Assembly: GCF_902713615.1 (NCBI RefSeq)
Contig: NC_052151.1
Coordinates: forward strand, 26,338,429-26,402,428
DNA length: 64,000 nt
Reading direction: 5' to 3'
DNA from: Scyliorhinus canicula
Lineage: Eukaryota
The translations under genes and the position numbers were made by a program. The notes under the pieces were generated by a model that was given only the letters and a program-made list of their open reading frames with translations, had not been told where the DNA came from and searched no databases. Shown piece after piece: positions 10,960-15,834 of this stretch (position 1 is its first letter; each line of letters starts with the position of its first letter).

Positions 10960-11444
10960 AGATTTTTATCAATTACAAGTATAAAGATAGCCCACAGCTA
11001 CAGTAATCTATGTATAACACTTAATGAATCCCCCCTTAACTGTTCAAATTCAAAAACAAAATCCCATAATCCAAAAAACTAATTTTCAAGCATGTGGCCC
11101 AGCACTCTGCATTCTCACTTGAATAAGACTGGCTTTCCCTGAGATTCTGGCCCCATCCCACCAGCAGGTTTAAACCCTTCCGGGAAGCAAACTATAGTTT
11201 TTAAGTTACCGAAACAGCAGATATCTATAATCAATGTTTTTTTTACTGGAACCGATATTTAAAATGAAACTAGAGAGAGACAGGCCAAAACACTTCTGTT
11301 TTCTGTTACAGTCCACAGCAGCCAAATGTGAAAGCGAAACCAAAAACAGCTCACAGAGCCACAGCCCAGCTCCAGCCACACAATGACATTACTGAAGCCA
11401 TGTGATAAGACAAAAACCTTTCTTAAAGGGACACTTGCATGACA
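10960..11444 (-). mobile_element. LTR-like fragment
   Basis: Minus strand begins TGTCATGCAAGTGTCCCTTTAAGAAA, similar to the start of the TSD-flanked solo LTR at 35475; distal end not defined. Confidence 0.55.
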
Positions 11445-11754
11445 CTTCACCAAGAAAGGGCAGTCTCCTGAACATTGACCGGATACTTGATCTTGCTTCA
11501 ATTTTCGAAAGACCAGGTTTTCTGGCTGGTCTTTCTTGCGTCACCAACATTTACAACCTTTTGAAGCGATGCTTCCTATTCCGTCTCCGTGTGTTTTTTT
11601 GCATATCAGCCTTATTGCTGATGCTTGTGTCTTCACTGTCATGGGTGCTACCCGGTCGACCAACCGTGCCCTCAACTCTTCTTCTCTTCCCCTTTCTTCT
11701 CATTTGAATAAGCCGCTCTCTGTGTCTCCTTTTCTCTTAGGCTTTGGTAGCATC

Positions 11755-12197
11755 TTCATTTGGTGCAGTTTTCGTAACTGTTCTACCAGTGCGCCGACAC
11801 TCATGCCTCTGCTTTGTTTTAATGGTCTTCATGGTCCCTTTTCTTTCCAGTCGCTGTGGCGTCCTGTGCATCCTATAATTTGTGGTCCATCAGAAGAGAA
11901 AAAATCTGACTCATCAAGCTGGGACTTCCCTGTGTATGTCTTGATCAATGCTTCATTTGTGAAATACACATTTGGCTTGAACGTAAACTCCAGAATAAAA
12001 CTCATTGGTTGCTCTGGACCTGAAGATTTCCCCTCTAAGTCTCGCAAATGCTTGAAGATGGGTTCATCGTGCTCCTGTATCATGTCACTGAGCAAATCCA
12101 CATTCTTGAAGACTGTCAACCAGAACACTGGAATTCCCTTTGGCTCCTCCATCTCTTCTTCTGGTTTATCTTCCTCCACTTTAACTTTTGCTTGTAT
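11755..12197 (-). pseudogene. NAP1L1: Processed (intronless) fragment of nucleosome assembly protein 1-like 1
   Basis: PKGIPVFWLTVFKNVDLLSDMIQEHDEPIFKHL...QPMSFILEF...YFTNEALIKTY...DGPQIIGCTG...DWK, then after a frameshift KTIKTKQRH...RTVTKTAPNE; diagnostic residues fit NAP1L1 rather than NAP1L4; no introns. Confidence 0.9.
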
Positions 12198-13420
12198 CGC
12201 ATTGGATAACTGCGTCATTATATTTAGTTGCCAGTCGCAATTATCCGCCATCACAGCGCTGTCTGGAATTTACAGCCGCACAACTAGGTTCAGGGCCTCA
12301 CACGCGTCTGCTCCTATGATGGACTCGCGTTCCGTGTCCACAATGGAAAATCGTACGATATGACTTCTGTTGTGTACTCGTGCTTCAAGCTCACATGCTC
12401 CCAACTTCGCAATCTCATTACCTTTGTAGTCTTTCAGTAGTTTTGTTTGATTGATGACTTTCGGTTTGAATCGCAGCCTGTTCAAATTGGACAAACTGAG
12501 AACGTTGGCTGTCACTCCAGTGTCGAACTTGCATCTGATCAATGTGGCATTCAGCATCAATGGAAGTTGTTTTGTTATGCTCTTGATGTAGCATAAGCTG
12601 CTTCCTTGATGTGCACTCTGACAAAGGAAGGTTCAGACTTGGAGATAGCTTTAACACATTTATTAAACTGTTAACAATTCTCCTACTTGGATTCGATTCT
12701 CCTGTTAATCCTCCTGCTATCGCTACTCAGATTATCTAACCAGTCTGCTACAATCCACGTGGTGGGTGTGATGTGTTTCAATCAACCCTGTGTACTCACT
12801 AAGTTTCTCCACTGGAAAGAGGCTGAGCAAGTGTGCTGTGTCCTTTTATATGGGTTGGTATAATGCCCTCCTGTGGTAGTGTCACCTCTGTGTGTATTGT
12901 GAATGCCCATTGGTCGTGTCCTATCTTATTGGCCTATTGGTTGAATATCTGTGTGTCATGTCTCTGGTGCTCCCTCTAGTATCTAGCTAATCTACGTGTA
13001 TTTAAATTAACCCCTTGTGTATTTACAGTGATGCATATCACCACAGACTTGTCCATCTGTCTTCAATGGTGCCAGCATTACCATCACTATTGCTGAAACT
13101 GGTCAGTAAGAATTCTTCGCTCTGCATATTCGGACTCATCGTGTCCTTAGTCGAACTCAGATCAATGAAAAACAGGTCTTCAATAGACAGCTCATCAATC
13201 GCGTTGACTGATCCTGATTGGTTCACTGCTGGGCGCAAAAAGCATTGCTTTGCAAAGTGATTTGTTCTGCCACATTTGGTACACACCTTCCCAAATGCTG
13301 CATATTGCCATGGCCCATGTCGATTGCCACATCGCTGGCATAAAATGGCAGGTCCGGTTGGTTGCTAAAAATGGCCAGCCCCACTGAGACCACGTTTTTT
13401 TATTCAACTGCATCACAGTG
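12198..13420 (-). mobile_element. Gypsy/Ty3 LTR retrotransposon gag C-terminus and protease remnant
   Basis: Zinc knuckle CTKCGRTNHFAKQC (CX2CX4HX4C) preceded by CQRCGNRH; retropepsin CKFDTGVTANVL...IIGADACEALNLV. Confidence 0.88.
12573..13045 (-). mobile_element. Solo LTR inserted between gag and protease
   Basis: Minus strand TGTGGTG...ATAACA termini with TATAAAA followed by AATAAA; splits the gag-pro reading frame; no clean TSD seen. Confidence 0.65.
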
Positions 13421-13425
13421 CTGAT

Positions 13426-13776
13426 GGAGCTGGGAGTGAGTGGGAGAGAGCTAGGAGTGAGTGGGAGAGAGCTGGGAGTGAGTGGGAGAGTGTGGGAGAG
13501 AGTTTGGTATGAGTAGGCGAGTGAGGGAGAGAGCTGGGAATGAGTGGGCAAGTGAGGGAGAGAGCTGGGAGTGAGTGGGCGTGAATGAAAGTCAGTGGGA
13601 GTGAATGGGAGTTAGTGGGAGTGAGTGGGAGAGAGCTGGGAGTGAGTGGGAGAGAGTGGGAAAGAGCTGGAAGTGAGTGGAAGAGAGCTGGGAGTGGGTG
13701 AGAGAGAGTGGGGGAGAGTGGGGAGTGGGTGGGAGAGAGTTGGGAGAGCTGGGAGTGAGTGGGTGAGTGTGGGAGG
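13426..13776. repeat. Purine-rich ~21-bp tandem repeat (GGGAGTGAGTGGGAGAGAGCT)n
   Basis: Visible degenerate periodicity. Confidence 0.9.
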
Positions 13777-13847
13777 GTGCACTGTGAGATTAAATCAACA
13801 AAAAAAATTACAAATCATCATGTGGGTAATTGTTGCTCAGAGAATAC

Positions 13848-15541
13848 GGATTTGAGGAACACAGATGTGAGGAACACAGATGTGAGGAACGCGGATGTGA
13901 GGAACACGGATGTGAGGAACATAGATGTGAGGAACACAGATGTGAGGAACACAGATGTGAGGAATGCGGATGTGAGGAACACGGATGTGAGGAACACAGA
14001 TGTGAGGCACATGGATGTGAAGAACAAAGATGTGAGGAGCACAGATGTGAGTAACATGGACGTGAGGAACACAGATGTGAGGAACACGGATGTGAGGAAC
14101 ACAGATGTGAGAAACATGGATGTGAGGAACACGGATGTGAGGAACATGGATGTGAGTAACACAGATGTGAGGAACACGGATGTGAGAAACATGGATGTGA
14201 GGAACATGGATGTGCTCAAAACAGGTGTGAGGAACATGAATGTGAGGAACACAGATATGAGGAACACAGATGCGAGGAACATGGATGTGAGAAACAAGGA
14301 TGTGAGGGACACGGATGTGAGGAACATGGATGTGAGGAACGTGGATGTGAGGAACATGGTTGTGAGGAACACTGATGTGAGGAACACTGATGTGAGGAAC
14401 ACAGATGTGAGGAACATAGATGTGAGAAACCCGGATGTGAGGAACACAGGTGTGAGGAACACTGATGTGAGGAACACAGATGTGAGAAACCCGGATGTGA
14501 GGAACACAGATGTGAGGAACATGGATGTGAGGAACATGGGTGTGAGGAACACTGATGTGAAGAACATGGATGTGAGGTACACAGATGTCAGGAACATAGA
14601 TGTGAGGTATACAGATGTCAGGAACATAGATGTGAGGTATACAGATGTGAGGAACATGGGTGTGAAAAACACAGATGTGAGGAACATGGATGTGAGGAAC
14701 ATGGATGTGAGGAACACAGATGTGAGGAACATGGATCTGAGGAACACAAATGTGAGGAACATGGAGGTGAGGAACGTGGATGCGAAGAACAGGGGTGTGA
14801 GGAACATAGATATGAGGAACATGGTTGTGATGAACACAGATGTGAGGAACACGGATTTGAGGAACACAGATGTGAGGAACACAGATGTGAGGAACATGGA
14901 TGTGAGGAACACGGATGTGAGGAACATGGATGTGAGTAACACAGATGTGAGGAACACGGATGTGAGAAACATGGATGTGAGGAACATGGATGTGCTCAAA
15001 ACAGGTGTGAGGAACATGAATGTGAGGAACATGGATGTGAGGAACACAGATGTGAGGAACATGGATGTGAGGAACACAAATGTGAGGAACATGGAGGTGA
15101 GGAACGTGGATGCGAAGAACAGGGTGTGAGGAACATAGATATGAGGAACATGGTTGTGATGAACATAGATGTGAGGAACACAGATTTTAGGAACACAGAT
15201 GTGAGGAACACGGATGCGAGGAACACAGATGTGAGGAACACAGATGTGAGGAACATGGATGTGAGGAACACAGATGTGAGCAACAGGGATGTGAGGAACA
15301 CAAATGTGAGGAACACGGATGTGAGGAACACAGATGTGAGGAACACAGATGTGAGGAACACAGATGTGAGCAACAGGGATGTGAGGAACACAAACGTGAG
15401 GAACACGGATGTGAGGAACACAGATGTGAGGAACACAGATGTGAGGGACATGGATGTGAGGAATACAGATGTGAGGAACATGGCTGTGAGAAACATGGAT
15501 GTGAGGAGCATGGATGTGAGGAACATGGATGTGAGGAACAC
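13848..15541. repeat. 15-bp minisatellite GATGTGAGGAACAC(A/G), ~110 copies
   Basis: Tandem periodicity; produces the NTDVR and TSVFL repeat ORFs. Confidence 0.97.
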
Positions 15542-15834
15542 GTAGCTAAAGGAGTTCGGAGAACGCGTCGCAGACTGGAGCGTCACAAAATATTGATTAA
15601 CTTAAGTGAGGCTTAGGGGACAGAAGGTTAGTGTTATGACAGATGGTAAGTACCTGGCTGCCCAAATCCGAAAGGGAGACCTGAACAAGCTATCACAATG
15701 ATTTGCAATTTGTACTTGATGGGAAGGAATATGAAGTCAGAAGAAACAATTTCAAACCACTAGTGAACAATTTAAAACTCAATTTAAATATTTATTACAT
15801 TGTTTTTCAGTCACAAGATTACTTACACAATTAC

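Follow-up and report, generated by a model that had tools for sequence, protein, structure and literature searches.

The capture of host mRNA by LTR elements is established, as the available sections of several reports document (PMC5131818, PMC7264820, PMC4299795, PMC13534243, PMC12287698). In the LTR-mediated retrocopies of animals, part of a spliced mRNA replaces the internal open reading frame (ORF) between intact LTRs, and the resulting non-autonomous chimeras can move again; the cases in the accessible part of that report are young, each with a single insertion site or a few (Tan et al. 2016, PMC5131818). The maize element Bs1, as far as the accessible parts of PMC5131818 and PMC7264820 treat it, likewise contains captured host exonic pieces and has moved again with shared switch points; it is a plant element of one to five copies that drew on three donor genes, and no chromatin cargo is described for it there. 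Among vertebrate LTR elements, crocodilian endogenous retroviruses bear captured KIT-ligand or nectin3 mRNA under purifying selection. According to the portions of that paper at hand (PMC4299795), they are retroviral, number nine and six copies and carry extracellular cargo, with KIT-ligand in a separate ORF between pol and env.

Here, we describe a Ty3/Gypsy family of the catshark Scyliorhinus canicula whose cargo is the host chaperone NAP1L1. Unlike the animal retrocopies in the available account (PMC5131818), this family numbers hundreds and likely thousands of copies, and its ~1,030 codons join Gag, protease and cargo in frame, the cargo apparently being kept under purifying selection through successive subfamilies. 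It differs from the crocodilian elements, as they appear in the accessible text (PMC4299795), in being of Gypsy type and in carrying its cargo fused behind the protease, in the place of reverse transcriptase (RT), RNase H and integrase. Single-ORF gag-pol Gypsy elements of fish ('K02A2.6-like'; P0122, P0126, P0130) have the same gene order up to the protease and, unlike the shark family, go on into RT, RNase H and integrase (~1,300 amino acids). With cellular NAP1L1 (human 11bc/11bd, shark P0001) the cargo shares the earmuff domain, import hairpin and acidic C-terminal stretch, whereas it is without the N-terminal region and dimerisation helix, has some conserved surface residues changed and is followed by ~330 further residues. 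In the literature consulted, mostly open-access papers, we found no report of NAP1L1 or another histone chaperone as cargo of LTR elements, nor of this shark family. Since capture by LTR elements is already known, what is new here is the cargo, the in-frame design, the scale and the selection; the function of the cargo is predicted from sequence.

The window, by which we mean the whole 64,000-nucleotide stretch analysed (NC_052151.1, forward-strand positions 26,338,429 to 26,402,428), resembles the family on its minus strand from 13433 to 11463. The element there is a dead, 5'-lost and internally deleted copy of a non-autonomous Ty3/Gypsy family. Its parts and neighbours, in element order, are:

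13049 to 13433, minus strand: 3' end of gag with two CCHC-type knuckles (13340, 13262) and linker; Pfam zf-CCHC (E 2e-4, in ORF 13364-13038), family anchors, 82% identity to copy L050
12566 to 13048, minus strand: later insert of 483 bases, a solo LTR of another family; absent from other copies, 91% identical to inserts in L049, L057 and L078
12255 to 12565, minus strand: retropepsin-type aspartic protease, DTG at 12524; Pfam Asp_protease_2 (E 1.2e-3, under the curated cut-off), 44% identity to residues 305-401 of Gypsy polyprotein P0126
11757 to 12254, minus strand: spliced NAP1L1 piece, residues ~132-299 of P0001; Pfam PF00956 (E 2e-36)
11463 to 11756, minus strand: Arg/Lys-rich end of the family's long frame, stop at 11739-11737; 78-87% identity to L050
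10951 to 11445, minus strand: start of an unrelated, LTR-like repeat; 85% identity to stretches in L049 and L118

A preliminary description of this DNA had recognised the gag knuckle, DTG protease and NAP domain, and the Pfam matches bear it out. Protease and NAP lie, as it had stated, in one frame, in which a TAA (12272-12270) is followed by five codons before 12254; a stop occupies the same codon in 1 of 36 other copies. The knuckle had been thought to run straight into the protease. In other copies the two sides are indeed adjacent, whereas the window has the solo LTR between them, which has TG...CA ends at 13045-12568 and an imperfect 5-base duplication, is foreign to the element and matches the family LTR over 9-18 bases only. 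The NAP piece, 68% identical to shark NAP1L1 and aligned with human NAP1L1 from residue 130, was correctly described as entering a frameshift (near 11846), with a stop and an Arg/Lys-rich stretch beyond. The direct order of NAP and tail proved to be a product of decay: the two adjoin in this copy because ~1 kb is missing at 11757, which cuts the NAP piece short. Lysine and arginine make up 22-39% of the basic end across copies (last three segments). An LTR-like start at 11444 had been taken for the element's own LTR. We reject this assignment, as the repeat does not match the family LTR and family similarity stops at 11463; no family LTR was found in the 64-kb window. Upstream gag, primer-binding site (PBS) and 5' LTR are gone, with simple repeats in their place. 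The 5' break adjoins two arrays, a 15-base tandem repeat at 13842-15545 (109 registered copies) and a pyrimidine-rich one at 13423-13790, which produce long spurious frames.

The preliminary description had concluded that the element is a degenerate member of a non-autonomous LTR family, one with a single Gag-protease-NAP1L1 frame, and the multi-copy junction, the continuous frame and the paired LTRs of other copies agree. A 601-base query across the protease-NAP1L1 junction matched 40 of 40 scored sequences at 79-84% identity (970 candidates in a first look), on which the alternative named there, a single-copy LINE retrocopy, fails. Three NAP protein queries gave at least 151, 107 and 139 matches; 150 of 1,505, 104 of 2,697 and 138 of 2,493 candidates were scored, and these candidate numbers are not copy numbers. 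The matches demonstrate hundreds of copies, and thousands are likely. Our sample comprised 80 fetched copies and the window; the copies were picked by likeness to the window or to NAP1L1, so that the sample is biased towards well-kept NAP parts. Among these 81, protease and NAP anchors occur together in 69, and gag, protease, NAP and tail anchors in 39. Copy L050 has, over 3,933 bases, the order LTR, PBS, gag, protease, NAP, acidic spacer, basic end, polypurine tract (PPT), LTR; the 11 LTR-to-LTR copies with all ends placed have a median length of 3,954 bases.

The features of an LTR element that the window has lost are all present in other copies. LTR probes match on both flanks of 24 of the 81 copies. 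The LTRs have TG...CA ends, and in the 11 copies with placed ends they are 83-89% identical to each other (K2P median 0.158, range 0.117-0.199). The only shark mutation rate at hand, from the available part of PMC10587355, is per generation, so this divergence is left uncalibrated and no date is given. Target-site duplications (TSDs) match at four or five of five bases in 6 of the 11 copies with all four ends placed, against 0.9% in a mismatched-pair control, and two low-scoring copies look mis-placed by a few bases. A PBS-like site is found in 43 of 81 copies and a PPT with LTR start in 39; the PBS complements the 3' end of tRNA-Leu(TAA), two genes for which were found by pattern and confirmed by ARAGORN. 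We are almost certain of this anatomy.

The long frame of the family runs for ~1,030 codons through Gag, protease, NAP1L1 residues ~132-383, an acidic spacer and the basic end (80 copies besides the window). Its continuity is apparent column by column: between the gag ATG and the basic end, 26 of 26 modal anchor distances are divisible by three, with several tail segments thinly covered (3-9 copies), and among copies of modal length stops are in the majority in 0 of 1,004 codon columns of the family frame, compared with 44 and 88 columns of the other two frames. The commonest frame end lies 28 codons beyond these columns (14 of 25). Individual copies are broken. The longest anchored open frame is 471 codons among the 81 copies and 662 among 139 further matches, and a search with the far-subfamily protein for unbroken or young copies found none among these 139. 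DTG is intact in 26 of 51 copies and appears as DMG in 7 more, which fits CpG decay. The family is extinct.

None of the 11 LTR-bounded copies has similarity to RT, RNase H or integrase between its LTRs. A query with the family LTR gave at least 40 matches (2,053 candidates), and of the 34 fetched, 13 continue into pol, 11 into NAP and two into the tail without NAP, one ends at the junction and seven are unclear. The two without NAP (L184, L192) have family LTRs, gag and tail, with internal deletions differing in extent. All of these top 34 matches to the 5' LTR query (L177-L196, L203-L216) have internal sequence and none is a solo LTR, which may reflect a ranking effect or few solo LTRs. The pol-bearing elements with the same LTRs are likely the helpers of the family. 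Gag and protease group with the single-frame fish Gypsy polyproteins (32-38% identity over 90% of the query). In Gag trees NAP-bearing and pol-bearing copies are intermixed, so recombination did occur. A single group of NAP-linked proteases is not rejected (p-AU 0.43). One NAP clade of gag is rejected (p-AU 2e-5), weakly, because that tree includes long-branch, probably mis-cut rows; a cleaner tree also needs three changes. Most simply, NAP would have been captured once and the LTR-gag end exchanged afterwards. At many places the genome (G000) also contains another Gypsy family, which is young and has dozens of unbroken 1,400-codon frames; its protease-RT stretch is 46-48% identical to the fish query.

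The NAP piece was held to be intronless, and it does join consecutive host exons. The host NAP1L1 gene on C20 has nine GT-AG exons over the stretch examined, matched in joined form by the family copies, and it fits better than NAP1L4: per-exon identity is 78-89%, against 71-86%, in short pieces, for the paralogue on C9. At 12254 in the window, ~15 codons past the last protease motif, helper similarity drops and host similarity rises within the same 9-base bin; the switch is placed to that bin, divergence being too high to count shared bases, and at the 3' end the spacer hides the switch. Capture begins at about residue 132, inside a host exon and right after a helix predicted at residues 76-125 of P0001 (model pLDDT 81), which corresponds to the long NAP dimerisation helix (PMC9128123, PMC13255070). 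The family piece spans residues ~132-383 of 397, some two-thirds of the protein on its C-terminal side, and keeps the acidic C-terminal stretch; the Pfam profile is covered from 55 to 266 of 266 in L126, which places the earmuff (domain II) within it. The captured piece lacks the domain I dimerisation helix and the export signal. (A single-sequence fold of L117:2526-3400 had pLDDT 37 and was not used.) Rather than the mRNA 3' end, poly(A) and own TSD of a LINE-made processed pseudogene, the family has an internal piece with a shared junction; as in LTR-mediated retrocopies, a partial spliced mRNA replaces the internal ORF between LTRs. The origin would have been a single template switch, from Gypsy RNA to NAP1L1 mRNA, just behind the protease. 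The ~330 residues after NAP, acidic spacer and basic end, appear to have no assigned source. In L056 this part (331 amino acids) matched none of 1,961 candidates of length 182-580, nothing in Pfam and not P0122, and 16 tails compared with the host NAP loci and six helpers gave one match only, via an inserted repeat.

To measure selection, we fitted pairwise dN and dS to trees by least squares, so that no ancestral sequence was needed, and left out L113, a near-duplicate of L112. On internal branches dN/dS is 0.12 for Gag, 0.40 for protease, 0.29 for NAP (0.22-0.37 in 30 bootstraps) and 0.60 for the tail, and on terminal branches 0.57-0.71. The neutral level of this method lies below 1: non-coding pseudo-frames gave 0.60-0.93 and shifted NAP frames 0.86 and 1.01, which puts spacer and basic end near neutral. 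Removal of CpG-prone codons changed the ratios little. Purifying selection very probably acted on the NAP protein while the family spread, as its low ratio suggests; by the same measure Gag and protease were demonstrably also constrained during the spread, and selection on NAP appears about as strong as on the protease. The copies form a ladder away from the host gene (dS 0.37-1.39, dN 0.11-0.28), which excludes refreshing from host mRNA.

Conservation within NAP is uneven. Residues invariant in 13 cellular NAPs are retained more often than others (81 of 87 versus 103 of 135), also in the far subfamily of 11 copies (67 of 87 versus 75 of 134, p 0.0016), where the core aromatics F174, Y237 and F305 are kept in 11 of 11. 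Acids aligned with D125 and E129 of worm NAP1, which contact histones (PMC9128123), are D or E in 49 of 80 and 40 of 78 copies, and in 0 of 11 and 2 of 11 of the far subfamily. Hardly any copies retain the near-invariant P248 and G253. E191, D193, E194, D327 and E329 stay acidic, the acidic C-terminal run is retained, and the import hairpin keeps a median of 10 of 12 basic residues.

Expression was examined in four RNA runs from two studies, aligned to L050. Reads at least 95% alike to L050 numbered 8, 0, 3 and 1; depth was 0-8 over the junction, protease and most of gag and at most 26 near the 5' end in one run, and no spliced joints were listed on L050 in the four runs. At 80% identity reads pile on the NAP stretch, mostly less than 90% alike, and presumably derive from host mRNAs. 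Sense reads at depth 62-78 lie on L050:3692-3933 (run X7) and L050:4176-4417 (runs X9 and X10). The same differences recur in 123 of 123 of these tail reads, as if they came from a single locus with a tail; the tail of some copy thus forms part of a transcript.

Family-like proteins with a species name come from S. canicula and S. torazame only (23 looked up). Among RefSeq catshark proteins, at least nine seem to be fragments of dead copies (P0094, P0095, P0143-P0145, P0151, P0183, P0205, P0208); six are named NAP1L1, the others KEX1-like or chloroplast-translocase-like. P0095 has gag and NAP pieces (60-70% to L050), P0094 is identical to a frame in L068 (L068:4809-5693, G000:C15) and P0145 to one in L056. 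In practice, RefSeq catshark proteins named NAP1L1 may be pieces of dead element copies. L068, an annotated gene, was considered as a host-domesticated copy and set aside, its distances to the host gene being ordinary (dN 0.16, dS 0.48); no RNA data set was listed as matching L068:4700-5800. Two S. torazame models merit mention. P0289 ('mL48 isoform X3') is a ribosomal-protein model with the far subfamily's acidic spacer (54% to L122), a possible exonisation. In P0136 ('D(2) dopamine receptor-like'), residues 234-476 belong to a related Gypsy gag that lies in frame within the third intracellular loop, through either an annotation artefact or an exonisation.

Selection on the captured part during the spread of the family makes it likely that this part was of use to the element. 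On balance we favour the view that NAP acted for the element as an acidic chaperone of basic proteins. The polyprotein would assemble together with the Gag-Pol of the helper, its own RNA being favoured, and cleavage by the protease near the former protease/RT boundary would release a module of NAP, spacer and basic end. This module, predicted to be monomeric since dimerisation helix and export signal are missing, and with the import hairpin retained, may bind basic partners, which could be the nucleocapsid or integrase of the particle or the H2A-H2B of the target nucleosome; such binding would help the cDNA to reach and enter chromatin. Human Nap1 chaperones the basic motif of HIV Rev (PMC13255070), and worm NAP1 binds H2A-H2B via one earmuff domain (PMC9128123). 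The Rev complex and the yeast histone complex depend on the dimerisation helix, which the family is missing, and the human Nap1-Rev complex uses parts lacking in the shark element's NAP. The loss of contact acids in the far subfamily and of P248 and G253 argues against a plain histone-chaperone role. Binding of H2A-H2B or another basic client is a prediction, with some contact acids lost and others kept. That a Gypsy lineage made a host chaperone its accessory protein, giving up RT and integrase for a monomeric earmuff as cleavable particle cargo behind the protease and matching its helper in copy number through many successive subfamilies, is plausible, if a little short of an even bet.

The same selection could have acted on a useless NAP of which only the hydrophobic core was kept: with NAP fused to every Gag, misfolding variants would spoil assembly, and so the core would be conserved. 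We judge this unlikely, yet it remains a serious rival, since the far subfamily keeps the core aromatics while losing the predicted histone-contact acids and some surface residues, and the dimerisation helix is absent. A useless domain of 250 residues could be removed by a stop or deletion behind the protease, and yet many successive subfamilies (host dS 0.37-1.39) have the frame open through NAP to the basic end. Family LTR matches without NAP and with the tail are the two (of 34 fetched) noted above, and the retained basic residues of the import hairpin and the five persistent acids also count against this reading.

A monomeric NAP that competed with host NAP1L1 or NAP1L4, or with their partners, and so weakened chromatin silencing of element and helper, is a distinctly less probable account. 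The loss of dimer helix and export signal together with the retention of the partner-binding domain and import hairpin would suit such a decoy (PMC13255070), and in Drosophila, according to the available part of PMC13534243, telomeric elements turn captured host pieces against silencing and reach higher copy numbers. Those cases, in the same portion of that source, work via piRNAs, whereas in the shark it is the protein that is under selection, and the DNA grows less similar to that of the host (dS up to 1.39). Such a benefit would also be common to all copies, leaving selection per lineage weak, and fusion to Gag suggests action in the element's own particle. A LINE-made NAP1L1 retrocopy in an old Gypsy element, or repeated recapture from the host, with no selection on an element protein, has only the intronless piece and the recombination seen in intermixed Gag in its favour and is very improbable, being refuted, if the counts hold, by the identical junction, the open-frame counts and the dN/dS controls, along with the absence of NAP1L1 residues 1-127 from every copy (an N-terminal query finds two loci only, both intron-bearing genes), pol that is replaced rather than interrupted (11 of 11), the unrejected single group of NAP-linked proteases and the host dS values reached.

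Most captured host pieces in animal LTR elements are few-copy accidents; the shark chaperone cargo was amplified and selected. The favoured reading of NAP as an acidic chaperone serving the element points to a step where LTR elements profit from a host chaperone, be it the handling of basic proteins, entry into the nucleus or access to nucleosomes. The family also amounts to a natural deletion series for a NAP domain without its dimer helix. If the accessory-protein reading is true, this would be a retrotransposon parasite paying its way, or outcompeting its helper, by means of a chromatin-handling protein.
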